A stretch of 64,000 bases of DNA from an uncultured virus (IMG/VR IMGVR_UViG_3300009688_000445) (Duplodnaviria; Heunggongvirae; Uroviricota; Caudoviricetes). The translations under genes were made by a program, and so were the position numbers. The notes below the pieces were generated by a model, which saw only the letters and a list, made by a program, of their open reading frames with translations, searched no databases and was not told the DNA's origin. Positions within the stretch are counted from its first letter, which is position 1, and each line of letters opens with the position of its first letter. Shown here in pieces: positions 5,571 through 51,979 of the stretch. The stretch is taken from IMG/VR virus record IMGVR_UViG_3300009688_000445. The stretch is one strand, 5' to 3'.

Positions 5571-6761
5571 TTACGCTGTCATCCAAGTTGGGACGGTAGC
5601 GCTGGATTTCATTGCAACAGCAACTGCTCTTGGGTTAAGAACGATCTGGCTAATTTGTTCTAGGAATAACCAACCATAGGAGGGATATCCAAATACGAAC
5701 TGATCAGCTGGGAATACGCTTAACTCAACGCGGACTGGCATTGCACCAAGGTAACGGCCTTCAGTTACTGCAAAAATCATACCAGCAGGAACGGAAACGC
5801 TTTCAATACCGGCTTCGTCAACACCAGCAGTTACGTAAACATTGACTCCCCAAATTGAACCAAAAATACCAGTTAGAAGTAGATCTCTTGAAGTAATAGG
5901 ATCGAAATCTATAGCATTGATATTTTTCTTCAAATCGCCTAATTCAGCACGATTCATGAGGAACTTGTCTACTTGTAATCTCCAACGCTCAACTTCATAT
6001 TGGAGAGTTTCTAGAGCAGACTTTGAAACTGTTCCAGTTATATTAACAACATCGTTGTTTAGAGTAGAAGCTGCATAGAGCTCTTTTAAGCCCTGGCGGT
6101 CTTCTTTTAACATAATCTGGAATGTAGTTTTGTCATGAGTACGCTCAACAACATCAAATTGTCTTTGAGCAATCTCAGACACAGTGATCTTAGGTAGTGC
6201 AGTTACGAGAAATTCGGGTGGGAATACTCTCTGGCCGCGTACTTGAGATCCAATTGTTTGACCATCTTCGTTAGTTACAAGAGCAACTACGTTAATATCT
6301 TTTTCGTACGAGTTAACCTGGCCTTGAGCTAAGTTATGTGTACGGAATACCTGACGAATAAATCCTTCATAGTCTAGACGATCTAGAACAAGAGGAATCA
6401 TCTCTGCACCAAAGCGAAGTCTTTCTTCAGGAAGTCCAGAAAGAGCAGCTTGGATGATTTGTTGTTTTTCTTCTGGTGTATAGTATGCCTTGTCGTGGGC
6501 AACACGTTTTTCTCTTAGTGCAGCAAAATGCTGTAATTGAGTTAGTGCATCTTTCTTGTCATAAGCTCTTAGTTGACCTTGGTCATCGAAAAGTCTGCTT
6601 GAACCTTTTTGTGCTCTACCATCAGAGGATACGCCACCATATCCTTTGGGTTCTAATAGTTCTTCACTATAAAGTCTGCTTGCTACTTTCTTGGTTTTTT
6701 CTTCAGCGGTTTTATTCATAACTTCTTTCTTTTCCAAACCTTCATTCCATATATTTGCCAT
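5571..6761 (-). CDS. Major capsid protein (HK97 fold)
   Basis: 396 aa; last gene of the protease-scaffold-decoration-capsid order; strong RBS (GGGAGG), biased codons and a terminator. The pattern RLDYEGFIRQ..LAQG..YEKD..PPEF..PKI..EDR recalls Bxz1-like large-phage capsid proteins (recognised from memory). Confidence 0.85.
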   Translation of the reverse strand: MANIWNEGLEKKEVMNKTAEEKTKKVASRLYSEELLEPKGYGGVSSDGRAQKGSSRLFDDQGQLRAYDKKDALTQLQHFAALREKRVAHDKAYYTPEEKQQIIQAALSGLPEERLRFGAEMIPLVLDRLDYEGFIRQVFRTHNLAQGQVNSYEKDINVVALVTNEDGQTIGSQVRGQRVFPPEFLVTALPKITVSEIAQRQFDVVERTHDKTTFQIMLKEDRQGLKELYAASTLNNDVVNITGTVSKSALETLQYEVERWRLQVDKFLMNRAELGDLKKNINAIDFDPITSRDLLLTGIFGSIWGVNVYVTAGVDEAGIESVSVPAGMIFAVTEGRYLGAMPVRVELSVFPADQFVFGYPSYGWLFLEQISQIVLNPRAVAVAMKSSATVPTWMTA

Positions 6762-7515: not shown

Positions 7516-7533
7516 TATACATTTCTCCTATAA

Positions 7534-11198: not shown

Positions 11199-12074
11199 TT
11201 AAACAAGTTTTTCAAGATTAGAAATTATTCTATCAAATTGATTAGCTATTCTTCTCTTCTCTTCTGAAGTTTTTGCCCTATCAATCATTCCATATACTAT
11301 ATTAGAAATTTCTTTTGCATAAGTAGCATTTTCATCTGCTACTTTTAATAATCTACCCGGTACAAGTTCTGATATAGCATCTATAACATAGGCTTTGACT
11401 GCAGCGGGTGAAGTTACTACTGATAACTCAAAAAAATCAACACCCTTAAGAAGTTCTGCTACTTTTTTTCCGTTTCTTCTTCTACCGCGGTGATATTTTA
11501 AACATTCACAAATTTCTGCTTCTTTAAGTATTTCTTTTCCACATGCAGTACATACAGAATGAGTTATGGAACAACCCATAGAAACAGGTACTCGAGTAGG
11601 GTACTTTATTAAATCTCTTGCTATTTTTGGTGCTTTAATGCTATCTATTCCAAATAAAGTTGTTACATGCATATCTTCATAAGGTTTATTTATTAATACA
11701 GCGTCGAATACCAATCCAATTGAATTTTCTATTTTATCTGATTCATGATTCTTATACATTGCTGCTGTTCTGAATGAATAATACCTTTTGATATTTTTAT
11801 CTGAATTTAGATCTTCAAGTTCTGTTATATCAAAGTAATCTGAATTTTTATTTACTGCATGTTCCCATAGCGCAGATTTATTTACTTTTCCATAATAATC
11901 ACCTGCATCTAATGCCCGTGTAGTAGCATATACATAATCTTCTACTGCTTTAGAAATAATCATATGATCTTTCTGGGATTCAATTATAGAAGCAATCTTT
12001 TCTTTATCTTTAGAACTAAATTGCTTAAATTCTTGCGGCTTTAATTCACCCATTTTGTACGTAGAAGTATTCAC
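11199..12074 (-). CDS. Prohead maturation protease
   Basis: Motifs NKNSDYF, YKNH, VSMGC, CxxCG..CxC and FFELSVVTSPA, typical of HK97/herpes-like phage prohead proteases with a Zn-finger insert. Confidence 0.8.
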   Translation of the reverse strand: MNTSTYKMGELKPQEFKQFSSKDKEKIASIIESQKDHMIISKAVEDYVYATTRALDAGDYYGKVNKSALWEHAVNKNSDYFDITELEDLNSDKNIKRYYSFRTAAMYKNHESDKIENSIGLVFDAVLINKPYEDMHVTTLFGIDSIKAPKIARDLIKYPTRVPVSMGCSITHSVCTACGKEILKEAEICECLKYHRGRRRNGKKVAELLKGVDFFELSVVTSPAAVKAYVIDAISELVPGRLLKVADENATYAKEISNIVYGMIDRAKTSEEKRRIANQFDRIISNLEKLV

Positions 12075-33649: not shown

Positions 33650-34612
33650 GTGAAAAAATATAGTTCTATATTAGATTATCAAAAATCTATTCTTTCGCCA
33701 GAAATTTGGAATTCTGATTTTTCTTTGAAAGAAGAAGTTAAAGAATTTCTTGGTGCATGTTTAAAAAATTTTTTTGATTATCTTAATATTAAAGGTTCAA
33801 ATAAGTGGATATTGGAAGCTATGATTGCTTCTTCTCTTGCCACCTATTTTTACACTGATTATTCTGATTTAGATGTTAAGCTTTTTATTGATATAGATTT
33901 ATTTTTAGAATATAACCCAGATTTTTCTACTTTAAGTGACGAACAACTTCTTAAATGGTTAAAAGAAAAAGGAAGAGAATCTTACTGGTTAACCCAAAAA
34001 GTACCAAATACTGATCATAGAATAGATATTTATTTTTTGTCTGGCAAGCATTTAGAAAGATTAAATACTATTAAATACGATTCTATTTATTTTCTTTCTA
34101 CAGACGATTGGTTGAAATTACCTGAAAAGCCGGATTATTCTAATCCAAGTTTTATTTTAGAAATAGCGAAAAGAAAAGCACAACCATATTTAGATATAAT
34201 AATAGATGATATAGAACAAACAAAACAAGATTGTATAGATTTTTTAGTTCTACAAGACTTTCTAAAATCTTTAGAAGCAGACGATTTATATAATCTTCAA
34301 CAAGAATTTCTAACTCAACTAGACTATGTTCATAGAGATTTAGAACAATTAATTATAGATAAAAATGCTATTAAACAATTAAGGGAAATAGCTTTTGATA
34401 AAAATTATCTAGATACAGAATTAGAAAAGTTAATGGGTTCTTTAAATTATTCAGATGGTAATCTTATTTTTAAGCTTTTACAAAGATACGGATACTTAAG
34501 TATACTTGTAGAAGTTAGTAAATACTTCAAAGAAAAAGATACAGTTCCAAACGAAGTAGAAAAACTATTGATGCTACTTAATCAAGTAAATGAAACAGAA
34601 ATACAGTTATAG
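33650..34612 (+). CDS. Pol-beta-superfamily nucleotidyltransferase-like protein
   Basis: ASSLATYFYTDYSDLDVKLFID (S..DxD) with a third Asp in RIDIY. Confidence 0.65.
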   Translation: MKKYSSILDYQKSILSPEIWNSDFSLKEEVKEFLGACLKNFFDYLNIKGSNKWILEAMIASSLATYFYTDYSDLDVKLFIDIDLFLEYNPDFSTLSDEQLLKWLKEKGRESYWLTQKVPNTDHRIDIYFLSGKHLERLNTIKYDSIYFLSTDDWLKLPEKPDYSNPSFILEIAKRKAQPYLDIIIDDIEQTKQDCIDFLVLQDFLKSLEADDLYNLQQEFLTQLDYVHRDLEQLIIDKNAIKQLREIAFDKNYLDTELEKLMGSLNYSDGNLIFKLLQRYGYLSILVEVSKYFKEKDTVPNEVEKLLMLLNQVNETEIQL

Positions 34613-35348
34613 TAAGATATCTACTTATTTAGAATGTCCTTTTAGATATAAAAAGCAATATATAGAAAAGATAAAAGAAAAACCTAAATGGCAGATATTC
34701 TTTGGTATAACAGCAGCAGATATTTTAGAGAAAGTATATAAAGAAGAAAGTTTTCATAATTCTCTTTTAGAAGATAGTAAATTAAAAGAACTAATAAATT
34801 ATTACTGGATACCTAATCAATACAAGAAAGAATATTCAGAAATAAATCAAGAAAGTTATTTATTTTTAAACTATAAATCAAAGAAAGAAGAAGAAACACA
34901 AAAAGAAAATCTTTTTAAATATCTAAAATTTTACTTTCAGAATAATAAAATAGAAAGAAAATTTGGTATTGAAGTTCCTTTTGAAGTAGAATTTGATGAT
35001 TTTTTATTGACAGGAAAAATAGATAAATTAGAACTTATTAATAATAAAATATATATTATTGATAACAAAGTAACAAGTAATTTTTTAAACGATCTTTTTG
35101 AAAGTATACAGTTAGGAATCTATATATTTGCAATAGAAAATTTAATCAAAAGATTTTCTGTAGAAAAAATAGGATATTATTATATCAAACAAAGTAAAGA
35201 ACAATTAATAGATAGAACAGATTTTAATGATTATAGTGTTCATCAAAAACTACGACAAGCTGTTAGTGGAATACGAGATAACATTTTTCCTGCTTGTTCT
35301 AATCAATTTTGTAATTGGTGTCAATTTAAGAAAGAGTGCGGGTTATGA
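34590..35348 (+). CDS. RecB/Cas4-like PD-(D/E)xK exonuclease
   Basis: SYSKISTYLECP, GKIDKL, IIDNK, QLGIY and a C-terminal CxxC cluster. Confidence 0.85.
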   Translation: MKQKYSYSKISTYLECPFRYKKQYIEKIKEKPKWQIFFGITAADILEKVYKEESFHNSLLEDSKLKELINYYWIPNQYKKEYSEINQESYLFLNYKSKKEEETQKENLFKYLKFYFQNNKIERKFGIEVPFEVEFDDFLLTGKIDKLELINNKIYIIDNKVTSNFLNDLFESIQLGIYIFAIENLIKRFSVEKIGYYYIKQSKEQLIDRTDFNDYSVHQKLRQAVSGIRDNIFPACSNQFCNWCQFKKECGL

Positions 35349-37509: not shown

Positions 37510-38064
37510 ATGCCTAGAATTCCTATTAGTCAAGAAAAAGATCCTTTCTCTAGTTTTATAGAAGAATTTAAGCAACCAGAAGATGGGCTGGATTATGAAG
37601 ATCTGCAATCCTATGCAGTTAGCTTTGATTCAAAAGATATTCAATTAATAGATCCACATAATCTAGAACAGATTATACTCGAATTAAATAACATACCTAG
37701 AACTTTATTTAGATACAAAATGATTGCTGATACACAAACAAAACTTGTACAGCAATTAGAAGACGAATATAACAAGTGGTATGCAGAAAAATGGATAGAA
37801 ATAGATAATGAAAAAGAACCTAAATATGATAGATCCGGTAATCAAGTAGGAGAGACAAAAGTAGTAAGAACAGAAGGTGCAAAAGAAAAGATTATTATTA
37901 CTACATATAGCGAAGAATATTCTCTTTTTCAGCATAGATTAAGAGAAGAAAAATATAGATTAGCAATTATACGATCAGCAGCTGCATCCATAGATAACTA
38001 TTCTTATAAGCTGCATGCAATACTTGGATACCAAGAAATGCTCATACAGAGAAAGGTGCAATAA
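37510..38064 (+). CDS. Putative recombination mediator (UvsY-like helical protein)
   Basis: 184-aa helical protein near the SSB gene; resemblance only. Confidence 0.45.
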   Translation: MPRIPISQEKDPFSSFIEEFKQPEDGLDYEDLQSYAVSFDSKDIQLIDPHNLEQIILELNNIPRTLFRYKMIADTQTKLVQQLEDEYNKWYAEKWIEIDNEKEPKYDRSGNQVGETKVVRTEGAKEKIIITTYSEEYSLFQHRLREEKYRLAIIRSAAASIDNYSYKLHAILGYQEMLIQRKVQ

Positions 38065-38065
38065 C

Positions 38066-38881
38066 ATGAATGGAAAAAATCTAAGAGAAAAATTTACAGA
38101 AAATAGCTTAGCAAGTAAAGTTTTAAGAGAAGTAGATCCATCTGGAAGTATATATTTCGAAAAAGATAAGAATATACCTTCAATCAAAGCAATTCAACTA
38201 GAAGATAAAGTAATTAAAATTTGTGTAGAGGATAAAGAAAAAACTGTTTCATTTTTGGAAGATATTATTTTAAGTACTTCGGGAACAACTGAAGAGGAAG
38301 CTTTAAAAAAAGTAATTGCACAAGAAGATAGAATATTCAAACACATGCTGCTAAAAGCAAGTGAACAAAATAATGAAGTTATTTCTGATGATTTTACATA
38401 TAAAGGAATTACCAAATCTAATTTAGAAACTGTGCAATACGAAGTAGAAAGACATCGACTTGTTGTAGATAAATTTTTAATGAGCACTTTGGCTAGTAAT
38501 GACATACTAGAAAATAAAGAAAACTTTCCAGCACAGGATTTTGATAAAATAACAGAACAGATATTACTAGATTATTCGTTGATAGGAAGTATTTGGGGTG
38601 TTAATATATTTGATATGGGTTTTGATCTTTTACCTTTAAGAGCTATATTCGCAGTGACAGACGGTAGATATTTAGGTGGTAAAAGAATTAATTCTATTAC
38701 ATCTACTACGTTAGATAATTCTAATGTTAAGGTAACTGTAAACGAAAGTTTATCCATAATTAACCCCAGAGCTGTAGCATGTTTGTTAGATGATTCCTAT
38801 ACAAGTAATCGCTTGCATTTAAAAAAGATTAAAGAAATAGATAAGAAATATAAAGAATTATATCTTAATAAGAAAGCATAA
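38066..38881 (+). CDS. Major capsid protein paralogue
   Basis: Shares EDR, LETxQYEVERxRLxVDKFLM, GSIWGVN, IFAVTxGRYLG and NPRAVA with 5571..6761; likely start is ATG 38066. Confidence 0.85.
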   Translation: MNGKNLREKFTENSLASKVLREVDPSGSIYFEKDKNIPSIKAIQLEDKVIKICVEDKEKTVSFLEDIILSTSGTTEEEALKKVIAQEDRIFKHMLLKASEQNNEVISDDFTYKGITKSNLETVQYEVERHRLVVDKFLMSTLASNDILENKENFPAQDFDKITEQILLDYSLIGSIWGVNIFDMGFDLLPLRAIFAVTDGRYLGGKRINSITSTTLDNSNVKVTVNESLSIINPRAVACLLDDSYTSNRLHLKKIKEIDKKYKELYLNKKA

Positions 38882-38931: not shown

Positions 38932-40034
38932 ATGACAGATGTAAATGATAAAATGAGTCGGTATGCCTCACAAATTGATGAATTTGATGGATCTAAAAAA
39001 ACTGATTATAACATCAGGGAAATTAAAATTCAAAAAGAAGTACCTAATCCTATCAGATTAGTAGATACACCTAATGGTGTTGAACGTTATTATGTATCTT
39101 GGATTATCTGCGATGATGATAAGAAAAGACCTTTTATTCTTGAAAACGATTTTGAAGGTAAAAGTATTCTTCTTAAACTTTTAGGTGATAAAGAGAATTT
39201 TTATAAAGGCGGTATTCTAGAATCAGTAAAAGATCCTGTTACTAACAAAGGAAAATATGTATGGGAGGATAAAGATCCAGAGCTTCTACTCAGAGTTGCT
39301 TACAATAATGATCCTACCGGTGATGCAGGATCTTGGAAGCCCAGAGAAGAATATATTTTTAATGCTATTCAAAGAAATCCCGATAAAGATGAGAGTGGTA
39401 CTCTTTATTTTTGGTGTAAAGAAAATAAGCAAACTAAGCTTCTAAAAATGGGAGTTATGGCATATAAAAATCTACAAGATGTTCGTCTTAATGATGGTGA
39501 ATTATCAGAATATGATATCAACTATCTTAAGAAAGGAACAGGTTATGGAACAAAACATAATATTCTAAAAGCCGGTGCAAATGTTCCTAATGTAGTTATC
39601 GGCCCATTAACAGAAGATGAAAAATCTTATACAAGAAATGATCTACAGAAAGAAGCAAAACTAACATCATCTTCTGATATCTTGAAGTATCTAAGAAATA
39701 CAATATCCAGAATAGATACAATCAAAGGTACCAACTGGATTATGCAACTAGAATCTCTAGCAAGACAACAAGAAGGACAAGTTGAAGTGCAACAACCTGC
39801 ACCTCAAGTAGCAGTTCCACCTCAAGCAGCCACACCTTCTAGAGTAGCTTCTAGAGTAGCAGCCCCAGTAGCTAAGGAGATTTGTGGTTATTGTAAAAAA
39901 GAAATTCCAATGAATTCTGTAACTTGCCTGCTTGTAATAATGTTCTTCAAGAACCTTGTGCTAAATGCGGCACACTGTTTTCAGTTTTTGAAACAATATG
40001 TCCGAGCTGTAAAACAGAGTATAAAGTAGGTTAA
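38932..40034 (+). CDS. Single-stranded DNA-binding protein (gp32-like) with C-terminal Zn ribbons; frameshift near 39927
   Basis: OB-like core (..YDINYLKKGTG.GTK.NI), Pro/Ala linker. Restoring one C gives CGYC..CPAC..CAKC..CPSC ending at TAA 40032-40034. Confidence 0.6.
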
Positions 40035-40038: not shown

Positions 40039-40593
40039 ATGTGCTATTATCTGGGGGCGGATCTTTCTTTGAATTCCAGTGGTCTAGTAATTCTAGATAA
40101 ATCTGCAAACATAGTAAAACAATATCTTTTGACGCCTCCTGATGGTTCTAGAGGCGTTGAAAGATTATTTTTTTTAGAACAATCTTTAATAGAATTTTTA
40201 GATCAGAATCATATATTATATTGTTGTATTGAGAGTCCCGCATTAGGCACAGAACAAGGTAGATTATTTGATTTAGGTGAATGGGCTGGAATTTTTAAAT
40301 TACATCTCTTTAAAAGAAACATAGAATATCTTTTAATAGCACCTAATCAGTTAAAAAAATATGCTTCTGGTCAAGGACAAAGTAGAAAAGATACAATAAT
40401 GTTAGATATCTATAAAAATTACAATATAGAAATTAGACAGAACGATTTAGCAGACGCATATATTCTTGCAAGAATTTGCAGAGATTATCAGATATATAAC
40501 ACACCCAATTCGTCTTTAGAGCTTAAGAAATATCAAGAAGAAGTTTTATTATCTATAAGAAAAAAATATCAAGATATAAATCTTTTAATATGA
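40039..40593 (+). CDS. ruvC: RuvC-like Holliday junction resolvase
   Basis: LGADLSLNSSG, IE, PNQLKKYASG, NDLADAY. Confidence 0.85.
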   Translation: MCYYLGADLSLNSSGLVILDKSANIVKQYLLTPPDGSRGVERLFFLEQSLIEFLDQNHILYCCIESPALGTEQGRLFDLGEWAGIFKLHLFKRNIEYLLIAPNQLKKYASGQGQSRKDTIMLDIYKNYNIEIRQNDLADAYILARICRDYQIYNTPNSSLELKKYQEEVLLSIRKKYQDINLLI

Positions 40594-40757: not shown

Positions 40758-43700
40758 ATGTATCATAATAGTTTATGTGAAAAATGTGGATTATGGAAGG
40801 ATGCTAAGCATCCTTGTGTTACAGGAAGAGGCGATCCATCAGCAAAATTACTTATTTTAGGAGAAGCCTTAGGAGAACAAGAGGACTTACAAGGATTACC
40901 TTTTGTAGGTTCTTCTGGACAAAGACTACAAGCATATCTCGATAGATTAAATATCAAATATTATATAAGTAATGCTGTAAAATGTAGACCTACTTCTAAA
41001 AGTTTAAATAGAAAAGGTGAAACTATTCTTCATAATAGAACACCTACTGCTAAAGAAATAAAATTATGTTCAGCAAAAACATATCAGTTAATAGATAAAA
41101 TAAAACCTACTGTAATATTAACTCTAGGATCTATACCTGTAACTCAATTATTACATTTGGGTCTAAGTATGACATCTGTTCGTGGAAGAACGTATTATCA
41201 TCCACAATTAGAATGTCATATTGTACCTACTTGGCATCCTGCTTATTTAGGATACAGTGGAGATAAACTTGTAGAAAAGCAATTTATGCAAGATCTTCAT
41301 CAGGCTATAGAATTATTAAAAGCACCCAGAGTAAGACAAATTAACTCTAATCCGAGATCACTTCAGGATCCTGTAGAAATTAAGGAATATCTGGAGTATT
41401 TAAATACTATTGAAGAATGTGCCATTGACTTAGAAACAACAGGGTTAAATCCTAGAAAAGATAGGATAACAGATATCTCTTTATGTGCAAAATGCGGTGA
41501 AGGTGTACATATAAGATGGATAGATATACTTCCATATTTTGAGTGCTTAAAAAAACTTCTAGAAAAACCAGAATTAAAATGTGTATTTCAAAACGGCAAG
41601 TTTGATACTGCTTTTCTAAAAGCTATTGGTATTAATGTAGCAAATTTTTATTTTGATACCCAATTGGCTTATCATACAACTACAATGACTTTTGAAGGTG
41701 AAGGAAAATCTCTTTATAGTTTGGAGGTTATGTCTTGGCTTTTAACAAGAGAAGGAAATTACAAAGCAATTCTAGAAGAATTTGGTGGAATAGCAGGTCA
41801 TCAAAATGGAATATTGCAGAAGAAAGCAGAGAAGAAAGAAAAGGAGATAAAGAAGGAACAAGAGAAGAAGGAAGAAAAGAAAAAAGAACAGAAGTCAGAG
41901 AAAACTAAACAAGTAATCAGAGTTCCAGTAGTAGAATGTAATTCTTTATTTGATGATATGGCAGAACCAGTAGTTAAAACTAATATCGCAAATGAATATT
42001 TTTCTCATTTATCTACTGAAGAAGATGGTAAATTTCTTGAAAAGTTTACACCAGCAAAGAAATTAAGAAGAACATTATTAGAAGAAGATCCAAATATTTT
42101 TATAATAAATGAAGAACAAGAAAAAGAATTACAGACTTATGTAACCTTTGTTTCAGACAAGCTTAAAAAGAAATTAGAATCTACAAAACTAACAGCTTTA
42201 GAGTATTATTCAGCAATGGATGCGGATGTTACCTTTCAAATTTATAAGAGATTGAAACCACAGATAGATTCAGAATTTAAAGAGGTATTTTATGATTTAA
42301 TTATGCCTCTTTCTTCTACACTACAACGATTAGAACAGAACGGTATTCTTCTAGATACTCCTTACATAGATATGCTTTTAGACGAGAATCGTGCTAGAAC
42401 AGCAGAAATAAAAAATTCTTTTTTTAAGAAAGTAAAGAAAGAATTTAATATGGATTCACCAAAAGAATTAAGAGAAGTTATTTATGATCATTTAAGAATT
42501 CCAGTAGAAGAAGAATATATGACTAATGGTGGAAAAAGTGGAGTAAAAATGCCTTCCACCGATAAAAATGCTATAGAGTATTTAGCTAAAAAACATCCTA
42601 TTTTAAATGGAATTGTAGAATACAGAAAACTCGAGAAAGAAAATTCTACATACTTGGATGGATTTAAAAATCATGTAGATCCTGTTACTGGAAGAATTCA
42701 TACATCTTTTTTGCAGCATGCTACCGCAACTGGCAGATTATCTTGTATAGCTGAAGGTACCAAGATTGCTATAGTAGGAGAAGAAAAAAATATAGAAGAT
42801 GTCCAACCAGGAGATTTTGTTTATAATTATGATAATGATGGAAATTTAACTATTTCTAAAGTATTAAATAAATCATATAGCGGATACGGTGATTGTGTAA
42901 GAGTTAAATGGCAAAGTTCAGGAAATGGAAAAATAGGTGAATTAATTTGTACACCTGAACATAGAATACTACATAAGTATAATGGCTGGACAGAAGCTAA
43001 AGATTTAAAACATTATGATAAGGTATATCACCTAAGAAAAGGAAAAACTTACTCTTATGATCCTCGTCCACGACTATATGGTACAAATTCTTTTTGTGAA
43101 GACGAACAAAGATTTATAAAAAGAGTATATTTTAAGGCAGATCCTAAAAAGACACATATTCATCATATAGATCACAATCCTTCTAATAACAGAATTTCTA
43201 ATTTGGAAATTTTAGATAGTGCTGAACATAATAGATATCATTCTAGATTGCTATACGAAAAAGGAATAGTTAGTGAAAGGCACATGCATACATCAGAAGC
43301 GCATGCAAAACGATTACAATCTTTAAAATATGGTAAAGATAATCCAACATATATTTATAAAACTAAAGAAGAACTTATTCAAATGTTAAAGGATGCCAAA
43401 GGTATAGTTACGCATATTCCAATGGATTTTTTAACATATAAACAAAAATGTGAAACAGAAGGTATCAATCTTAAAGAACTTTGTGACTGTTTCTCAAGAG
43501 GTAAGTTTTTTATTTCTCAAGAAGATGTTTTTAAAGTATGGGATAAATATAAAGATTATGAATATCCTATATATAGATGTGCAGGTGAATTGCATATAAG
43601 TCAAGATAAGTTTAAAAGATTATTAAAGTATTATGATATATCAACTAATCATGTAATTCTATCAGTTAAACCTGCAGGTAAATATCATGTTTGGGATTTA

Positions 43701-44534
43701 GAGATAGAAAATTATCCAAATTTTATTGCTAATGAAATCTGTGTTCATAATTCTAGTGCACCTAATACACAAAATATACCTAGAGATAACCGTATTCGTA
43801 ATATGATTATTCCTAGAGAGGGATGCAAACTTGTAACTGCTGACTTATCACAAGCAGAATTAAGAATTCTAGCTATGATGGCAGACGATAAGAAAATGAT
43901 AGATGCTTTTGCATCTGGATATGACTTCCATGCTTATACTGCATGTGCAATGTTTGGTATAAAACCAGAGATATTTGATAAAGAAAATAATCCAGATCAT
44001 AAAGCAAAACGATCTCTAGCAAAAAATATTAATTTCGGTATTGCGTATCAAATGTCAGCAAATTCATTAGCTTCAGATGTGAATATTTCATTAAAAGAAG
44101 CACAAGATTTTATTGACAAATTTTACAATACTTATTTTAATGTAAAAAGATGGATAGATAAAACAAAATCTTTTGCTTTAAAGAATGGATATGTACAAAC
44201 ATTGCACGGAAGACGTAGATATTTGCCGTATGTACACAGTTCAGATCAAAAAGTTCGTGAAGGTGCATTAAGGCAAGCCGTAAATACACCAATTCAAGGC
44301 ACTGCTAGTGATTGTGCTTGTTTTGGTCTTATTAGAATTCAAAAGTTTATAGACGAGAAACAGTTAAAAACAAAACCTATCATGATTATACATGATGAAA
44401 TTGTTCTAGAAACGCCTTTTGAAGAAGTAGAGTTAATGGTAGAAAAATTACCATATTTTATGACACAAAATTTACCAAAAGTAACAATTCCATTAGTAGC
44501 AGACGCAGAAGTTTTAACGAGATGGAAGAAATAG
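40758..44534 (+). CDS. polA: Family A DNA polymerase with N-terminal family-4 UDG domain and an intein
   Basis: UDG (CxxC, GEALG, PFVG, KCRP, WHPAY), 3'-5' exonuclease (DLETTG, QNGKFD, YSAMD), polymerase motifs TGRLS, DLSQAELR, KNINFGIAY, HDE. Confidence 0.95.
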   Translation: MYHNSLCEKCGLWKDAKHPCVTGRGDPSAKLLILGEALGEQEDLQGLPFVGSSGQRLQAYLDRLNIKYYISNAVKCRPTSKSLNRKGETILHNRTPTAKEIKLCSAKTYQLIDKIKPTVILTLGSIPVTQLLHLGLSMTSVRGRTYYHPQLECHIVPTWHPAYLGYSGDKLVEKQFMQDLHQAIELLKAPRVRQINSNPRSLQDPVEIKEYLEYLNTIEECAIDLETTGLNPRKDRITDISLCAKCGEGVHIRWIDILPYFECLKKLLEKPELKCVFQNGKFDTAFLKAIGINVANFYFDTQLAYHTTTMTFEGEGKSLYSLEVMSWLLTREGNYKAILEEFGGIAGHQNGILQKKAEKKEKEIKKEQEKKEEKKKEQKSEKTKQVIRVPVVECNSLFDDMAEPVVKTNIANEYFSHLSTEEDGKFLEKFTPAKKLRRTLLEEDPNIFIINEEQEKELQTYVTFVSDKLKKKLESTKLTALEYYSAMDADVTFQIYKRLKPQIDSEFKEVFYDLIMPLSSTLQRLEQNGILLDTPYIDMLLDENRARTAEIKNSFFKKVKKEFNMDSPKELREVIYDHLRIPVEEEYMTNGGKSGVKMPSTDKNAIEYLAKKHPILNGIVEYRKLEKENSTYLDGFKNHVDPVTGRIHTSFLQHATATGRLSCIAEGTKIAIVGEEKNIEDVQPGDFVYNYDNDGNLTISKVLNKSYSGYGDCVRVKWQSSGNGKIGELICTPEHRILHKYNGWTEAKDLKHYDKVYHLRKGKTYSYDPRPRLYGTNSFCEDEQRFIKRVYFKADPKKTHIHHIDHNPSNNRISNLEILDSAEHNRYHSRLLYEKGIVSERHMHTSEAHAKRLQSLKYGKDNPTYIYKTKEELIQMLKDAKGIVTHIPMDFLTYKQKCETEGINLKELCDCFSRGKFFISQEDVFKVWDKYKDYEYPIYRCAGELHISQDKFKRLLKYYDISTNHVILSVKPAGKYHVWDLEIENYPNFIANEICVHNSSAPNTQNIPRDNRIRNMIIPREGCKLVTADLSQAELRILAMMADDKKMIDAFASGYDFHAYTACAMFGIKPEIFDKENNPDHKAKRSLAKNINFGIAYQMSANSLASDVNISLKEAQDFIDKFYNTYFNVKRWIDKTKSFALKNGYVQTLHGRRRYLPYVHSSDQKVREGALRQAVNTPIQGTASDCACFGLIRIQKFIDEKQLKTKPIMIIHDEIVLETPFEEVELMVEKLPYFMTQNLPKVTIPLVADAEVLTRWKK
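42744..43751 (+). mobile_element. Intein (336 aa) with in-frame HNH endonuclease in polA
   Basis: TGRLS|CIAEGT..CTPEH..HHIDHNPSNNRISNL..VWDLEIENYPNFIANEICVHN|SSAPN. Confidence 0.95.
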
Positions 44535-45712: not shown

Positions 45713-46180
45713 ATGAAAATACAAAAAAAATTTACTACTGAAACAGCCCATATAGTAAGAGAAGCTTCATCGATTCGTTGCAAGAATAATATACATGGTC
45801 ATAGCTATACTTGGATAGTAACAATACAAGGTGGTCTAGATCATGCAGGAATGATTATAGATTTTAAAGATTTAAAACCTATTAAGGATTTTATAGATCT
45901 TTTTGATCACGCAACTGTTTTTTGGTCTAAGGAACCGGATTGTGAAATTCTAGCTTTTTTTCAAGATAAATTTTCAAGAGTTCTTATCATGAAACAAAAT
46001 CCTACAGCAGAAAATATGGCAAGATCACTTTTCAAATTTACTAAAGATTGGTTACAAAAAGATTATCCTACACTTTCTGTTGCAGAGGTAGCGGTATGGG
46101 AAACCGCTACAGGATGTGGTATTGCTACCGAATGCAATGGGAATGATATTTTAGTTTACACTCATTCAGATACTAACTAA
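45713..46180 (+). CDS. queD: 6-carboxytetrahydropterin synthase
   Basis: AH..C..IHGHSY, DF..LK..FDH, PTAEN, WET. Confidence 0.9.
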   Translation: MKIQKKFTTETAHIVREASSIRCKNNIHGHSYTWIVTIQGGLDHAGMIIDFKDLKPIKDFIDLFDHATVFWSKEPDCEILAFFQDKFSRVLIMKQNPTAENMARSLFKFTKDWLQKDYPTLSVAEVAVWETATGCGIATECNGNDILVYTHSDTN

Positions 46181-46195
46181 GTGTGGTGATTTTTA

Positions 46196-46627
46196 ATGTC
46201 TTTTAAAAAGGCTAATTTTGTTAATTGGGATGATATTGCTGCCTATTGTAGAGAATTAAGAGTACAAGAAACACCAGATGTAATTTTAGCAGTCCATCGT
46301 GGTGGTCTTCCTATAGGAGTTCTTCTAAGTCATAAATTTCATGTTCCAGTAGAAATACTATATTTTTCTAGATATGATAGTAATACAAAGATTAAATGTA
46401 ATCTTTCTAGAAAAGAAGAATATAATAGAATATTAGTAGTAGACGATGTATCTGATAAAGGAGAATCCTTAGAAAGAATTACAGAATTTTTATCAAAGAA
46501 GTATTATATTAAAGAATTAACTACACTTACATATGCAATAAAAAATAAAACACAATTTAAACCAAATTATTTCAAAAAAGAATATGACGATCATATTTGG
46601 TTAATCTTTCCTTGGGAGGCAATATGA
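46196..46627 (+). CDS. Purine phosphoribosyltransferase (Gpt-like)
   Basis: RGGL, ILVVDDVSDKGESL, WLIFPWE. Confidence 0.85.
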   Translation: MSFKKANFVNWDDIAAYCRELRVQETPDVILAVHRGGLPIGVLLSHKFHVPVEILYFSRYDSNTKIKCNLSRKEEYNRILVVDDVSDKGESLERITEFLSKKYYIKELTTLTYAIKNKTQFKPNYFKKEYDDHIWLIFPWEAI

Positions 46628-47310
46628 CAGAAAAAGAATGGAATTTAGATATTACAGAAAGCTTCACGTCCATACAGGGAGAAGGAATTCATGAAGGGGT
46701 TCCTTCCCATTTTATTCGACTTGCAAAATGTAATGCTTCATGTCCTTTCTGTGATTCTAAATATAGCTGGAAATCTGGAGATAAATATGATTATCAAGGT
46801 ATTTCAGCACATTTAAGTATGATGTATATTGCAAATCCAAAAGTTAATATGCTAACTATAACAGGTGGTGAGCCAACTTTACAAGATTTAAACCCACTAA
46901 CATCTTTAGTTAAAGATTTTTATAATTGGTTTATAGAAGTAGAAACAAATGGTTTGATTCATAAAGATAGAGAATTGGAAAAAGACGTAGATTTATGGAT
47001 TGTTTCACCAAAACTATACTCAGAAGATATAATAAAAAGATATAATCAAGAAATTTTAGATAGATTTTTATATACGAATCATATCTTTAAATTTGTTATA
47101 GGAACAGAAGAAGAACTAAGTATTGTTTTAGATTTTATAAAATCATATAAATTGGATCTAGATAATAATATTTGGTTAATGCCTAAAGGTACTTCAATAG
47201 AAGAAATTAGAAAATCAAGCAAACTACTTGTCCCTGTTTGCCTAAGAAAAGGATGGAATTTATCTTCCAGACAACAGATAGTTATTTGGGGCAATAAAAA
47301 AGGAGTATAA
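46624..47310 (+). CDS. queE: 7-carboxy-7-deazaguanine synthase (radical SAM)
   Basis: SIQGEG, CNASCPFCD, TGGEP, VETNG, VSPK. Confidence 0.9.
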   Translation: MTEKEWNLDITESFTSIQGEGIHEGVPSHFIRLAKCNASCPFCDSKYSWKSGDKYDYQGISAHLSMMYIANPKVNMLTITGGEPTLQDLNPLTSLVKDFYNWFIEVETNGLIHKDRELEKDVDLWIVSPKLYSEDIIKRYNQEILDRFLYTNHIFKFVIGTEEELSIVLDFIKSYKLDLDNNIWLMPKGTSIEEIRKSSKLLVPVCLRKGWNLSSRQQIVIWGNKKGV

Positions 47311-47314
47311 TGTT

Positions 47315-47545
47315 ATGAATTATTATTGTAAAAATGGTGCATATCATACCTATAAGTGCTGCAATACATGCTGGAATTTACATCCAAAAGCAGAGAAAAA
47401 TAAAATGTTTTTCGGTAGTGAGACCTTTAATAAAGTATTAGATCAAAATTTTATTCAAAAAGCAAAACAAGTAGGATTTACTGAGCAACAAATAGAATTC
47501 TTATCACAGATTATTTCTACAAGATTAAGTGTAGTTATGGAGTAA
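47315..47545 (+). CDS. Hypothetical protein
   Basis: 76 aa with a Cys-rich N-terminus. Confidence 0.5.
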   Translation: MNYYCKNGAYHTYKCCNTCWNLHPKAEKNKMFFGSETFNKVLDQNFIQKAKQVGFTEQQIEFLSQIISTRLSVVME

Positions 47546-47550
47546 GAAGG

Positions 47551-48006
47551 ATGAAAATAATTACAACTTCTGATGGTAAGTGTAAAATACTTTCTTTTCT
47601 TTCTGAAAAGAATATAGCAGCATTTACACTCGATTCTGGTGATTGTCATAATGCAGAACCTATTAAATTAACGTTAAACACATATATCTCCGATTTAGAT
47701 ATTATTGCAAGATGTGAGGGTCTTGATAAAGATTTAAGAATTTTTACTGTTTGTTCTTCTTGCGGTAAAACTTATAATGATTGTAGCTGTGATCATCTTC
47801 ATTCTATTGCTTCTAATTATCAATTATGTGTTAGAGATCTAGAAGGAAAATCACCAGGTTATATACAAAGAATAGAAATTTTTGGTAGTGCAGATCAAGA
47901 TAAACCTATTGTTAAAATATATAAATATGAAATAGATAATAGTAATACAGAAGATATAGTAGTTAAAAGAGATGAAAATGGACAACCTAAACTTTTTATA
48001 TATTAG
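47551..48006 (+). CDS. Hypothetical protein with CxxC..CxC motif
   Basis: 151-aa ORF. Confidence 0.6.
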   Translation: MKIITTSDGKCKILSFLSEKNIAAFTLDSGDCHNAEPIKLTLNTYISDLDIIARCEGLDKDLRIFTVCSSCGKTYNDCSCDHLHSIASNYQLCVRDLEGKSPGYIQRIEIFGSADQDKPIVKIYKYEIDNSNTEDIVVKRDENGQPKLFIY

Positions 48007-48079
48007 AATTTTAAGGAAGAAATATCAACAGAAATGTTGTTTGACCGTTTCCTAATTTATTTTCTTAGGAGAAAAGATT

Positions 48080-48742
48080 ATGGGTAGAGATACAAATTGC
48101 GTAGTACTTCTTTCTGGTGGTTTAGATTCAACAGTTATGCTGTATTGGGTGAAAGAGAGATATGATAAGGTATTTCCTCTTTATATTAACTATGGATCAA
48201 GTCATAAAGAAAAAGAATTTTATGCCGCACAACAAACATGTAAGGAATTAGGATTATTTCTAGAAGAAGTAAAGTTAACTGGCAATATACTTTCAGATTC
48301 TTCTCTAGTAGACAAATCTATTAGAACTCCAGATGATTTAAAAGATACAATTAATACAGTTGTTCCATTTAGAAATATTATGATGATTAGTATCGCAGCT
48401 AGTTATGCAGATAAAGTAAATGCCGGTGTAATTGCAACTAGTCCAACACGAGAAGATTTCGATGTTTTCAGAGATTGTAGAAGAGAATTTCATGATGCAT
48501 TAGAAAAAACTTTACAGATTGCTGCAAAGTACGATCAACCCTATCAAATTTTAACACCTTTTATTACTAATACTAAAGAAGATGTTATTCGTATCGGTGT
48601 TGATATGGATGTAGATTTTTCAAAAACCTGGTCTTGTTATAATCCACAAAGAGACGAACCCTGTGGTGTATGTCCAGCATGTAGGGTTAGAGAAAAAGGA
48701 TTTATGCTAGCTGGTGTAAAAGATCCACTTAGGAGAAATTAA
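48080..48742 (+). CDS. queC: 7-cyano-7-deazaguanine (preQ0) synthase
   Basis: SGGLDS, VPFRN, TWSCY, CGVCPAC. Confidence 0.9.
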   Translation: MGRDTNCVVLLSGGLDSTVMLYWVKERYDKVFPLYINYGSSHKEKEFYAAQQTCKELGLFLEEVKLTGNILSDSSLVDKSIRTPDDLKDTINTVVPFRNIMMISIAASYADKVNAGVIATSPTREDFDVFRDCRREFHDALEKTLQIAAKYDQPYQILTPFITNTKEDVIRIGVDMDVDFSKTWSCYNPQRDEPCGVCPACRVREKGFMLAGVKDPLRRN

Positions 48743-49350
48743 TGCTTAGTTCATTAGATACGTTTTATTACACAGATGAAAATATAGATTATATAGGTGA
48801 TCAACTTCATAGTCTATTCAATTTTAAAACTGCTAATATGATAGGAGATTCTGTTTTTGCTTTTGAAGGAAAAATGGATGTAAAAACTGATCATATGGTA
48901 GATATTGAAGATGTAAAAGAAAATGATTATATCTGGTCGCCTAAAGCTCTTAACTTTATTATAGAGATCTTTAACATCAATATAGAAACTGCAGTACTAT
49001 ATCAAAGAGCTTTTATGCAGATTTGTACAAATGTTCTTAAAGATATATTAGCAGAATCAAATATTATAGTTTATTTAGTTAAACTGAAAGGTGATGATAT
49101 TCTAGTTAAAACATTGGATGGAGAAGTTTGGAAGAAGCTTTCTGTATCTATTGCTACAGTAAGTCATATTTCTGGTTTAATCCACGTAGGTATTAATATA
49201 GATACAGATATGAATATACCTGTTCCAGCAATAGGATTACAAGAACTTATCGATTTGCATGTATACGAATTTGGTGTTCGTGTACTAGAACAATTTAAAG
49301 ACTTTCATAAATCTATAAAATTTGCTTCAGTTAAAATAAAAGGTGTTTAA
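48742..49350 (+). CDS. DUF366-like protein (biotin/lipoate-ligase / class II aaRS-like fold)
   Basis: MVDIED..IWS..NFIIE..AVLYQR..GDD..KLSVSIAT..IHVGINI pattern. Confidence 0.7.
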   Translation: MLSSLDTFYYTDENIDYIGDQLHSLFNFKTANMIGDSVFAFEGKMDVKTDHMVDIEDVKENDYIWSPKALNFIIEIFNINIETAVLYQRAFMQICTNVLKDILAESNIIVYLVKLKGDDILVKTLDGEVWKKLSVSIATVSHISGLIHVGINIDTDMNIPVPAIGLQELIDLHVYEFGVRVLEQFKDFHKSIKFASVKIKGV

Positions 49351-49353
49351 TAT

Positions 49354-49998
49354 ATGGAAGAACAACTAATTAAATTACTCCAAAAAGAATCGTTTAAGAA
49401 AATGGAAGAAGGAGCAAGACTTCTTCTTGAGGGTTTAGGTGAAGTAACAGCACCAGAATCTACCAGTCCCTTAACAACATATTCGACAATTTCTTTGGAT
49501 GATCCTAATTTTAAGAAAACACCTTATAGGATAGCAAAAGCTTGGGTAGAAATGTGTATAGGTCTTTCGCAAAAACACGAAGTAACAAAAATATTAGAAA
49601 CCAATTTTCCAAGTAATTATACAGGAATGATAATTATTGATTCAATTAATTGTTATTCAATGTGTCCACATCATGCACTTCCTGTAGCTTATCGTGTAGA
49701 TTTTGGATATATACCTTCTGATAAAATGTTGGGTCTTTCGAAGATTCCTAGATTTATAAAACTCTTAGCTAAACAACCCATACTTCAAGAGGATTTTACT
49801 AAACAATGTATTGAACAATTTGTCGAACATGTTAAACCTGAAGGTGCTATTTGTGTGGTAAAAGGTGTACATAATTGCATGGTTTGCAGAGGCGTTGGTG
49901 CTATTAATTCAAGTGCTACTACGTCAGAAGTCTACGGAAGTTTTGAAAAACTAGAAACTAGAACAGAATTTTTAAATTTAGTTAAAAAGAATACATAA
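49354..49998 (+). CDS. folE: GTP cyclohydrolase I
   Basis: TPYR, SMCPHH, GLSKIPR, QE, HNCMVCRG. Confidence 0.9.
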   Translation: MEEQLIKLLQKESFKKMEEGARLLLEGLGEVTAPESTSPLTTYSTISLDDPNFKKTPYRIAKAWVEMCIGLSQKHEVTKILETNFPSNYTGMIIIDSINCYSMCPHHALPVAYRVDFGYIPSDKMLGLSKIPRFIKLLAKQPILQEDFTKQCIEQFVEHVKPEGAICVVKGVHNCMVCRGVGAINSSATTSEVYGSFEKLETRTEFLNLVKKNT

Positions 49999-50564
49999 TG
50001 GTATATACTAAACAACAAAATATAGAGATATCTAAAAAAAGATATCAGTATGTTCAACAAATCATTAAACTGCTTCCTTCTAAAACTTATTTACATGAAT
50101 GTTCTTTTGAAGAAGACAAGTTTGGTGGATCTGATTTTATAATCATTCAAAAAGCAATTAATGTCAGTTATGCATGTAGATTATTAAATGATAAACCGCA
50201 TTGGGATCGTATAACTTTTCGTGTGCATACTTATGATCATACTGATGTACCTAATCAAAAATATAGTGAATACTATAAAATTCAAAGAGATGAAGTAACT
50301 TGGGATAGGTATTTCTTTGGTCATATAAATACTAGTAATATAATAACAAAGTGGTTAATTTTTGATAGAAGAAAAGCTATAGATAGTGGCATTTTTAATA
50401 TGCCAGTTCAGCTTAATAACTTCAACTATCCCAGAAATCTAAAATGGAATGATTCAAAAAAAGAAGATGATAGAACAGGATTTATTTCTTGTAGGATGTC
50501 TGATTTTTTTAAAGTTGGTGCAGTATTACATAGTTACGATAAGAAAGGTACTTTAGATGTTTAA
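49998..50564 (+). CDS. Hypothetical protein (possibly nuclease-like)
   Basis: 188-aa ORF coupled to folE. Confidence 0.6.
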   Translation: MVYTKQQNIEISKKRYQYVQQIIKLLPSKTYLHECSFEEDKFGGSDFIIIQKAINVSYACRLLNDKPHWDRITFRVHTYDHTDVPNQKYSEYYKIQRDEVTWDRYFFGHINTSNIITKWLIFDRRKAIDSGIFNMPVQLNNFNYPRNLKWNDSKKEDDRTGFISCRMSDFFKVGAVLHSYDKKGTLDV

Positions 50565-50793
50565 TAATTTTTTTAGAAAGAAAGAAAAAGTAATAATGGA
50601 TACTATACGAGATGATGATACAGTACATTTTCTAACCACACAAAGAATTATTGAAATATTAAATGATCCCAAACTGGCATCAGAAGATGAGATTAGAAAT
50701 TTAGCTTATACTGTTTTAGAAACTTTAGATATTTTAAGTAATGCAATTATGCAAAGTATCACTGATAAAGGTGATCCTTCAAATTTACATTAA
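50557..50793 (+). CDS. Hypothetical protein
   Basis: 78-aa coupled ORF. Confidence 0.55.
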   Translation: MFNNFFRKKEKVIMDTIRDDDTVHFLTTQRIIEILNDPKLASEDEIRNLAYTVLETLDILSNAIMQSITDKGDPSNLH

Positions 50794-50803
50794 GGAAGTA
50801 TGT

Positions 50804-51979
50804 ATGAGTAATATAATAGAATTTATATCTAAATGTTTTGCTTTTAAAAAACTCAGAAAAGCAAATTATAAATGTGAATTTACTGGTGTAGAACTTTCAG
50901 GAAGTACTGGATTTGCAGTATATTCTATTTATAATATTGCAGAAATAGAAGAGTATGTAAAATCATATGAAAATAAAGATGAGATTATTTACTGGGTTTT
51001 CGATAGAATGTGGGAAGATTGGCTTTTGATAATTTCAAAAGATGTTCACTTCGAGCAAGAAGAAAAGGTTAGACAATCAATTAAATCGTTAGATGACTAT
51101 GCAAAAAAGATTATAGATAAAGTTATAGATAATCTAAAAACTCCTCTAGGTTCTAGAACAGCATATATTAATGAGTACGATCCTACTCTGCTTCTTCCAG
51201 TTAAAAGACAACCTACACGTGAAGCAATTGGATATGAGTATATTCCTTTTGTAGGTCTAGATGTATGGAATGGTTATGAATTATCTTATCTGGATAGAAA
51301 TGGAAAACCTGTAAATAAAATGATTCGTATTGCTTATGATTCAGATAGTGAATCTATTATAGAATCTAAATCGTTAAAACTTTATTTTAATTCTTTTAAT
51401 AACACTATAGTAGAAAAATTAGGTAAAGGTAATATAATAGATATTATTAAGCAAGATTTAAAACAAGCAATTAAATGTAATTCTATAGAAGCATACTTTA
51501 TAGAAACAAATTATATTCATGATTTTGCTAAGTATTACTATCCTATAGATCAATTACGTTGTGATAAGTATTCATATGATTATGACCCAGATTTGCTTGA
51601 AATTCAACCTTCATTATATAATTATCCTATTTTTCTAAAGACAGATTTACTTAAATCTAACTGTAGACACAGTGGTTTACCAGATTGGGGAACTGCTTAT
51701 ATTTCTTATGAACCAAATTCTGCGCAATTGGATCCTTATTCTGTTTTAAAATATATAATTTCTTTCAGAAATCACAGAGAATTTCATGAAGAGTGTTGTG
51801 AAAGAATTATGCACGATATCATGTTTAAAATTAACCCAAAATGGTTACGTGTAGAACTTCGGTACACACGTAGGGGCGGTTTAGATATCAACCCAATTCG
51901 TGTATTTGATTCAATAGGTGAGTATAATTATGATTTTCATGTTGAATTTTCTAGATATGCAAGGGAGATAAGGCAATAG
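50804..51979 (+). CDS. queF: preQ0 reductase (bimodular QueF) with N-terminal extension
   Basis: DVWNGYELS, ESKSLKLYFNSF, LKSNC..PDWG, EFHEEC, YTRRGGLDINP, C-terminal RQ; likely start is ATG 50804. Confidence 0.9.
   Translation: MSNIIEFISKCFAFKKLRKANYKCEFTGVELSGSTGFAVYSIYNIAEIEEYVKSYENKDEIIYWVFDRMWEDWLLIISKDVHFEQEEKVRQSIKSLDDYAKKIIDKVIDNLKTPLGSRTAYINEYDPTLLLPVKRQPTREAIGYEYIPFVGLDVWNGYELSYLDRNGKPVNKMIRIAYDSDSESIIESKSLKLYFNSFNNTIVEKLGKGNIIDIIKQDLKQAIKCNSIEAYFIETNYIHDFAKYYYPIDQLRCDKYSYDYDPDLLEIQPSLYNYPIFLKTDLLKSNCRHSGLPDWGTAYISYEPNSAQLDPYSVLKYIISFRNHREFHEECCERIMHDIMFKINPKWLRVELRYTRRGGLDINPIRVFDSIGEYNYDFHVEFSRYAREIRQ

Follow-up and report, generated by a model that had tools for sequence, protein, structure and literature searches.

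A compact HK97-fold paralogue of the major capsid protein encoded in the replication arm of a large uncultured phage

Among the triggers of bacterial immunity, capsid proteins are now recognised as major ones, and satellites exploit homologues of capsid proteins. The gp24 protein of phage T4 is a diverged vertex paralogue of gp23 that has a shorter N-terminal part and is dispensable in some backgrounds. It is a full-size virion protein, is encoded adjacent to gene 23 and is expressed late. The closest characterised case to the gene presented here is Ccm of the staphylococcal phage satellite SaPIbov5, which the sections available of its description present as a 24%-identical homologue of the helper's capsid protein without the long N-arm (PMC8569155). 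According to the same sections, Ccm cannot form capsids alone and fills the pentamers, forcing small isometric heads (PMC8569155). It also has a delta domain of 87 residues, which is removed by cleavage, and its homopentamers are described there as real shell subunits (PMC8569155). Full-text literature searches on jumbo-phage capsid paralogues, decoys, duplicated or truncated major capsid proteins (MCPs) and inhibitors returned no described optional, fast-evolving, one-sided non-shell derivative of a phage's own MCP, and the available part of the jumbo-phage genomics review PMC7824862 names capsid proteins only as group markers. The compact family presented below is an undescribed group of HK97-fold proteins of about 250-280 aa.

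The window, the whole 64,000-nucleotide stretch analysed from the uncultured virus record IMGVR_UViG_3300009688_000445, has a G+C content of 29%. Its nearest record, G001, has 97% of sampled words in common with it and is a 236,368 bp genome with direct terminal repeats that is rated complete. The phage is present in sludge, digester and wastewater metagenomes of 11 studies. The minus-strand arm of the window (1-24967) carries the portal, the head protease (11199-12074) and the 396-aa MCP (5571..6761, minus strand), which is the parent of the paralogue. The plus-strand arm encodes SbcCD-like genes, an exonuclease (34590-35348), a RuvC-like Holliday junction resolvase (40039..40593, plus strand), a Pol III-alpha-like polymerase (40758-44534) and a clamp, along with 7-deazaguanine pathway genes, a UvsX-like recombinase, DnaB and a primase. 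The resolvase is a marker of the replication and recombination arm and is syntenic in all relatives examined. The compact HK97-fold paralogue of the MCP, identified by BLASTP, profile and fold, is located within this arm (38066..38881, plus strand) and encodes 271 aa, from the ATG at 38066 to the stop that ends at 38881. An alternative longer frame starts at 38015 and runs into the upstream gene, while the 271-aa form is identical to the database cluster P0001. The initial annotation had placed this ORF in a replication arm on the strand opposite to the MCP gene; the ORF is present at these coordinates, the arm is marked as such by the resolvase, the polymerase, the exonuclease and the SbcCD-like genes, and the two genes lie on opposite strands with 31.3 kb between them.

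In BLASTP, the paralogue and the MCP are 38% identical along an alignment of 188 aa (E 6e-28), with residues 75-246 of the paralogue corresponding to residues 208-389 of the MCP. Profile-profile alignment with hhalign, using 30 paralogue-family sequences against 36 MCPs, extends this match to residues 3-247 of the paralogue and 122-390 of the MCP (probability 100, E 8.3e-58). Judged by these alignments the homology is far beyond chance and the protein is a true paralogue, as the initial annotation had claimed from shared blocks. The blocks that it quoted, LETVQYEVERHRLVVDKFLM, GSIWGVN, IFAVTDGRYLG, NPRAVA and QEDR, all fall within the BLASTP alignment, and the FEKD/YEKD block is recovered through the profile-profile alignment. 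The nearest sequence relatives of the paralogue are phage MCPs. The MCP itself matches NF042927 ('HK97-fold major capsid protein') at 157.4 bits against a cut-off of 80 and phrog_2522 ('major head protein') at E 2.9e-54, whereas the paralogue reaches only 15.9 bits with the former and E 4e-08 with the latter. No Pfam family matches the paralogue at E 0.01 or at E 10, encapsulin models included, and PADLOC provides no match. In a wider comparison aimed at cultured relatives, 274 phage records match the MCP, each at one place, the best being Virus Rctr197k (37%) and Bacillus phage G (29%); with one such place apiece, they supply no proteome in which a compact paralogue could be sought. Recent gene conversion between the paralogue and the MCP gene was considered and rejected, as the best nucleotide patches reach only 75% over 183 nt for the copy at the related locus L015 and 81% over 58 nt for the window copy.

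The differences from the MCP are concentrated at the ends and in the loops. Approximately 120 aa of the MCP N-terminus, and with them the N-terminal arm, are absent from the paralogue, and the divergence noted earlier in the E-loop region corresponds to a deletion of 16 residues at about MCP 193-208, which the profile-profile alignment places at the junction of the E-loop and the spine helix. The A-domain loops are shorter, and the C-terminus is different from that of the MCP and longer. The basic C-terminal tail of the initial annotation needs to be divided in two: the extension is a trait of the family, running 9-133 aa past the NPRAV motif and commonly 20-40 aa, while the basic charge belongs to this copy, which has a net charge of +5 over its last 38 aa in a range of -2 to +8 across 35 family members. 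The MCPs of the window's group close with a conserved ATxPxWM tail instead of this type of extension. The description of the paralogue as truncated is misleading, as NF042927 spans only residues 98-382 of the MCP and the paralogue covers approximately the whole mature-size HK97 domain.

AlphaFold2, provided with the family alignment, predicts that the paralogue monomer folds as a complete compact HK97 domain (pLDDT 93, pTM 0.87). The model contains two short N-terminal helices, an E-loop-like hairpin at residues 40-54 (strands 40-45 and 49-54), a spine helix at residues 76-101, the A- and P-domain cores, and an extra C-terminal helix at residues 252-269. Foldseek analysis of this model returned HK97-fold shells for all of the best protein data bank matches (LME-1, HFTV1, HK97 proheads, SaPI1, T5 and several encapsulins), with E values from 6e-9 to 3e-7 and TM-scores of 0.4-0.53, the encapsulins scoring 0.43-0.53. 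The model of the MCP is weaker (pLDDT 72) and contains extra N-terminal helices and a hairpin (residues 19-128) together with a 33-residue spine helix. Taken with family conservation, selection and placement on the tree, discussed below, the predicted structure supports the earlier suggestion of a repurposed capsid fold.

The paralogue is directly preceded by a conserved gene of 184 aa (37510..38064, plus strand), which is found in all five relatives searched as well as in L015 and forms the left border of a variable slot. The right border of the slot is a conserved gene (38932..40029, plus strand) whose product features a C-terminal double zinc ribbon in G001 and relatives, and whose reading frame shifts near 39926 in the window. 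The names given to these neighbours by the initial annotation are not sustained. The upstream gene finds no support as UvsY-like from Pfam at E up to 10, PHROGs, NCBIfam, PADLOC or PDB profiles. For the downstream gene, the same searches offer the zinc ribbon and nothing toward a single-stranded DNA-binding protein (SSB), the sole lead in that direction being a weak gp32-like match with ESM Atlas scores of 0.77-0.78. The junction between the 184-aa gene and the paralogue (38052..38068, plus strand) consists of AAAGGTG at 38052-38058, the upstream stop TAA at 38062-38064 and the paralogue ATG at 38066-38068, which places the start codon 2 nt past the stop of a replication-arm gene. The same 1-nt spacing is observed in L015 (6831-7382 followed by 7384-8169), and this layout suggests translational coupling with the upstream gene. 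Early expression, as suggested by the initial annotation, would follow from operon position, on the grounds of which the paralogue is probably made from the replication and recombination operon, before or alongside the head proteins. Between 33000 and 41000, promoter-like sites are at chance level (53 against 46.3 expected) and the scan located no terminator next to the paralogue; an AT-rich motif found upstream of two genes is not enriched (19 matches against 20.7 expected). Two metatranscriptome runs (X18 and X19) provide contigs on the neighbouring genes and none of substance on the paralogue. Because the data are contigs, the libraries may hold DNA and missing coverage is no proof, nothing about expression is concluded from them.

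Searched exhaustively with HMMER, 1.84 billion cluster representatives yielded 48 matches at E values up to 0.001. Among the 47 that are not the query itself, the tree places 36 on its compact side; two more are compact fragments (P0010 and P0038), eight are true MCPs or MCP fragments, and one is an unrelated repeat protein of 4133 aa. The compact family, as delimited by this search and tree, is composed of at least 36 diverged clusters. Its members are mostly 220-290 aa long and align with the query from end to end; seven are extended to 337-366 aa, and three of these seven contain an N-terminal RRXRR domain (PF14239) at 35-39 bits with a cut-off of 25. No signal peptide was noticed in the family. 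The tree was constructed in IQ-TREE quick mode from 91 distinct sequences, once five duplicates, P0001 and P0052 had been removed, and the further removal of six fragments (L024, L037, L051, L055, P0010 and P0038) left 85 rows. A single branch splits all 39 compact-type rows from the 46 MCP rows, with an SH-aLRT of 88 that is not decisive. Terminal branches measure 0.7-3.2 substitutions per site in the compact family against 0.05-0.3 in the window's MCP group. By these sequence comparisons, the compact family split long ago from the MCP lineage of related large uncultured phages.

The paralogue and the syntenic L015 copy are 48% identical with a dN/dS of 0.35, a value that is overestimated if anything because the dS of 1.3 is near saturation. 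The three neighbouring genes exhibit values of 0.16, 0.29 and 0.29 in the same comparison. The ORF is intact in every copy seen, and on this evidence the paralogue belongs to a conserved, selected compact HK97-fold family that stands apart from true MCPs on the tree. A decaying duplicate had been anticipated in the initial annotation to be absent from relatives and to have a dN/dS near 1; most relatives indeed lack the gene, but it evolves under purifying selection, and the two together indicate an accessory gene and not a decaying one. That the gene is a functionless capsid-gene duplicate in decay is accordingly very hard to credit: its absence from most relatives and the loss of many MCP-invariant residues would fit, but the intact ORFs, the confidently predicted fold, a dN/dS of at most about 0.35 at saturated dS, the operon coupling conserved in L015 and a common length, motif set and C-terminal extension across at least 36 diverged clusters are against it. 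Decay is contradicted by selection and by family conservation as read from the sequences.

Five related long records retain the gene order of the 36415 homologue, the 184-aa gene, the variable slot, the downstream gene and RuvC, and the slot is filled by the paralogue only in the window and G001 and in L015. In G004, the closest long relative with an MCP that is approximately 84-85% identical, the slot measures 74 bp and contains no gene, and in G006 it measures 5 bp and is likewise empty. In G003 it encodes a small membrane protein and an acyl-carrier-like gene, and in G002 it is occupied by four or five unrelated ORFs, one of them acyl-carrier-like. The paralogue gene is an accessory gene in a variable slot between two conserved genes of the replication arm. 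A family-profile search revealed no second MCP-like gene in 16 of 17 related records, including the complete G007 and G008; with G001 counted, such a gene is present in two of 18. G005 encodes a 235-aa ORF (P0038) that combines an unrelated N-terminus, the C-terminal half of an MCP and the tail of the family, and that is flanked by HNH endonuclease genes. G001 also carries a further MCP-derived fragment fused to a small-protein family. For a third MCP fragment gene (L003), no homologues were identified outside its own cluster, and its array partners have only an N-terminal domain in common.

Variation at the paralogue is also observed within one population. In the sludge run X14, the flanking contigs are approximately 96% identical to the window at a depth of 23-33, and the sole contig that retains the paralogue is 868 nt long with 13 differences and a depth of 6.4. 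A contig at a depth of 24.7 skips positions 38069-38657 and 38691-38866, and the 35-nt island that it retains encodes TDGRYLGGKRIN, the most conserved motif. This population holds two haplotypes at the paralogue, and the commoner one is probably a strongly diverged allele (<80% identity) and not a clean deletion. Scans of viral contigs with the single proteins P0009, P0019 and P0026 provided no match, and alignment scans of viral contigs returned mostly true MCPs, with one of 42 non-identical loci being compact (L015). A metagenome scan identified one new compact locus (L082), which adjoins a ribonucleotide reductase gene, together with additional contigs that carry either the window copy or the L015 type. 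The genomic context described here covers three lineages of the compact family, namely the window and G001, L015, and L082.

A heterodimer of the paralogue and MCP residues 110-396, predicted with each chain supplied with its own alignment, scored 0.70 (runs of 0.70, 0.70 and 0.73), while the best of three controls scored 0.00. From run to run, at least 89% of contacts are the same, the partner pLDDT is at least 78, and the mark set for this score is reached by 116 of 157 solved complexes and by two of 215 mismatched pairs. The predicted contact is a side-by-side packing of A-domains that involves helix 271-279, loop 311-314 and residues 123-131 of the MCP, and residues 117-133, 177-178, 200-205, 232-235 and 21-36 of the paralogue. 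The pass may reflect likeness to the abundant solved HK97 capsomers and not real affinity, and the score supports binding between the two proteins without proving it.

Conservation of these two surfaces was compared by column in 35 compact and 43 MCP sequences, excluding P0007 (a duplicate of L015), P0010, P0023, P0032, P0038, L062, the open-ended fragments L024, L037, L051 and L055, and P0039, P0042 and P0051. The 28 paralogue-side columns are the best-conserved part of the compact family: their information is 0.57 where the background is 0.41, and relative to the MCPs they are matched by just 0.14% of 5000 randomly drawn column sets. This high conservation is partly circular, because the interface residues were chosen by a predictor fed the same alignments. 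The motifs of this kept face that the paralogue family and the MCPs have in common are LQYEVERxRL, WG, GRYLG and NPR. Conservation in the compact family is lowest in the 26 columns that correspond by homology to the MCP-side face (0.22, with 24% gaps, against 0.69 in the MCPs), and none of 5000 random column sets is as low. Residues Y131, R271, A312 and G313 of the MCP-side face are invariant or nearly so in the MCPs and score only 0.14-0.29 in the compact family, and R292, which is of the same class on this face, is likewise not kept. The independent evidence for asymmetry is the loss of this opposite face only. The asymmetry is not uniform across the family, because some members keep part of the lost face; P0007, P0010, P0023 and P0026, for example, retain much of its NRxxLG...DPITSRDLL stretch.

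The reading favoured here, which is held tentatively, is that the paralogue is a one-sided capsomer cap that would bind free MCP, probably for conflict or for modulation of assembly. The compact family has shed the N-terminal 120 or so residues, comprising the probable propeptide and most of the N-arm, along with part of the junction between the E-loop and the spine helix. On one side of the A-domain wedge its members no longer keep the conserved residues of the face, while the opposite side face is retained better than any other part. Such a protein would be unable to close a capsomer or to knit capsomers together; it would dock on unassembled MCP and fail to recruit the next subunit. With one of two side faces retained, the paralogue probably grips free MCP instead of forming capsids. 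The predicted interface and the one-sided conservation give computational backing to one of the functions listed in the initial annotation, namely capsid interference or binding. Such a cap would come from the replication operon, at a time deduced from operon position, and its purpose could be to mask free MCP from capsid-sensing host immunity or to hold back or poison capsomer formation; a non-essential modulation of assembly is also conceivable. A conflict role is favoured because the paralogue is optional, fast evolving and polymorphic. Because the face that the cap would bind is shared by every related MCP, that of the phage itself would be hit as well, and timing, dosage or a chaperone role would be needed as an explanation.

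The same accessory, fast-evolving and polymorphic character, usual for counter-defence genes, could also fit a decoy or antagonist that mimics the MCP surface read by sensors of the CapRel, Avs7 and Dsr1 type and binds the sensor, rather than the MCP, without activating it. This is unlikely, though less so than the other alternatives. MCP-sensing defences are well documented, and Avs7 and Dsr1 sense the MCP in the available part of bioRxiv 10.64898/2026.01.04.697583. The MCP-like motifs that are kept, an operon that is probably pre-late and the additional fused MCP fragment of G001 would suit this role too. However, an early MCP-like protein might itself trigger capsid sensors, the paralogue has no counterpart in PADLOC, the literature searched describes no MCP decoy, and the conserved surface is a capsomer interface, for which MCP binding is the simpler explanation.

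It is improbable that the paralogue instead enters the virion as a minor subunit and co-assembles with MCP hexamers, whether as a specialised protein of pentons or vertices on the model of T4 gp24 or as a factor for capsid geometry or size on the model of SaPIbov5 Ccm. The complete HK97 fold and the predicted contact with the MCP are compatible with this role, patchy presence would suit a dispensable vertex paralogue, and the available sections on Ccm, which fills pentamers and forms no capsids alone, offer a precedent (PMC8569155). Ccm also weighs against the favoured one-sided cap, as it lacks the long N-arm and is nevertheless described there as a genuine shell subunit (PMC8569155). A pentamer, however, requires both side faces, and one of them is selectively degraded in the family; the paralogue has no N-terminal propeptide or delta domain of the kind found in Ccm; its gene, at 31 kb from the head module, is coupled to genes for replication and is missing from G004, the closest long relative, and from the complete G007 and G008; and the branches of the compact family measure 0.7-3.2 substitutions per site where those of close MCPs measure 0.05-0.3. 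More doubtful again is a self-assembling encapsulin-like shell or ring that would form in the early phase of infection and might enclose phage proteins or DNA. The paralogue has the size and fold of encapsulins, several of which are among the top structural matches (TM-scores 0.43-0.53), and the extra C-terminal helix, basic in the window copy, and the RRXRR domain at the N-terminus of three of the seven extended members could be accommodated. The poor conservation of one capsomer face and the absence of the N-arm speak against a shell, as do the lack of a Pfam encapsulin match and an accessory distribution that is ill-suited to a core compartment. Lineage-specific, co-evolved contacts could still close a ring of paralogues.

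If the one-sided cap is right, the virus would possess a simple, testable means of controlling or hiding the protein that it makes in the largest amount, and the cap would represent a natural reagent against HK97-type assembly. A more speculative and rather improbable extension is that swappable half-interface capsid mimics of this phage lineage clamp new MCP through the single capsomer face left to them and hide it from sensors of the Avs7, Dsr1 and CapRel type, or poison the capsomer closure of co-infecting relatives. If true, such mimics would constitute a new principle of counter-defence or competition built from the virus's own shell protein. Function aside, the family reveals which parts of an HK97 protein are dispensable when selection still acts on the fold and on one interface.

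Several known systems share part of this pattern. Family 1 encapsulins also consist of a compact HK97 fold without a delta domain (approximately 260-300 aa), but they are cellular, have Pfam encapsulin matches and have cargo partners, whereas the paralogue has no Pfam match and is encoded in a phage replication operon. In further contrast to the encapsulins, it derives from the phage lineage's own MCP and is without a conserved second interface. The second MCP paralogue of rudiviruses belongs to an unrelated alpha-helical fold in archaeal filamentous viruses. Like T4 gp24, the paralogue has diverged from an MCP and has a shorter N-terminal part; unlike gp24, it is not full-length and is encoded neither beside the MCP gene nor in the head module. 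The resemblance to Ccm, as far as the available sections of PMC8569155 describe it, is that of an HK97-fold capsid-protein homologue encoded outside the phage head module and without the long N-arm. In that description Ccm on its own forms no capsids and works on the capsid protein of its helper; the paralogue would likewise form none and would act on the MCP. The paralogue differs from Ccm, within the limits of that description, in having no N-terminal (delta) domain and in the degradation of one side face. It differs further in that Ccm is satellite-encoded, whereas the paralogue is encoded by the phage within its replication operon, flanked by core genes of the phage with synteny across five relatives, and not in a satellite.

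The space between a conserved 184-aa gene (window 37510..38064) and its downstream neighbour (38932..40029), which holds the compact paralogue (271 aa; 38066..38881, plus strand) in the window, is an accessory-gene hot spot. In the related phage G003 the corresponding slot (L073:2796-3396) encodes an 81-aa membrane protein and an 89-aa acyl-carrier-like protein, while that of G002 (L074:3262-5486) contains four or five ORFs, one of which is an acyl carrier protein (phrog_5934, E 8.5e-12). In the window's copy of the downstream gene, a frameshift at 39926 (within 38932-40029) removes the C-terminal double zinc ribbon. One extra base is present at this position in the nearest related record, G001, and in contigs of three sequencing runs (X19, X10, X14). 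The frameshift reflects either misassembly or strain variation in the window.

At L082:1690-2760, a homologue of the compact paralogue resembling P0009 precedes a ribonucleotide reductase-like gene, which seems to hold an intein-like insertion. The surroundings of this compact-family gene are again those of nucleotide metabolism rather than of head genes. Three further members of the family (P0012, P0030 and P0041) have an N-terminal RRXRR domain (PF14239) scoring over the cut-off. The gene directly downstream of the true major capsid protein (MCP) in two distant relatives (L133:4447-5379 and L134:1506-2192) also opens with an RRXRR-like stretch, albeit a weaker one (23 and 15 bits, below the cut-off of 25). 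Together, these occurrences suggest a recurrent tie between this small domain and capsid-type proteins.

Two other ORFs contain MCP-derived sequence. The third MCP-derived piece of G001 is a 177-aa ORF (L003:1216-1749) located approximately 5-7 kb past the right end of the window, and its C-terminal part resembles MCP residues 171-222 (38% identity, E 5e-8), a stretch that includes the segment missing from the compact paralogue. This part is joined to an N-terminal domain belonging to a small family of tandemly arranged genes (L003 ORFs 740-1210, 1216-1749, 1773-2099 and 2096-2314), and no homologues of the ORF were found outside its own cluster. In G005, a 235-aa ORF (L062:835-3346, ORF at 1255-1962) consists of an unrelated N-terminus followed by the MCP C-terminal half and a compact-family tail. 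It lies 10 kb from the MCP of the same phage and has HNH endonuclease genes on either side (phrog_4234, E 4.5e-33).

Several distant MCP genes (L039, L047, L048, G008:C1:17420-18196 and G017:C1:13528-14298) are interrupted by one in-frame stop codon (TAG or TAA) close to the C-terminal limit of the homologous region; possible causes are a shorter protein, read-through or error.

Elsewhere in the window, a 1258-aa Pol III-alpha-like DNA polymerase (40758-44534) has HNH endonuclease matches within residues 785-892, which may represent an inserted homing endonuclease or intein. A 7-deazaguanine (queuosine-type) pathway cluster at 45713-53002 includes QueD, QueE, QueC, GTP cyclohydrolases and a tRNA-guanine transglycosylase-like gene, and its presence suggests that the phage has modified DNA bases.
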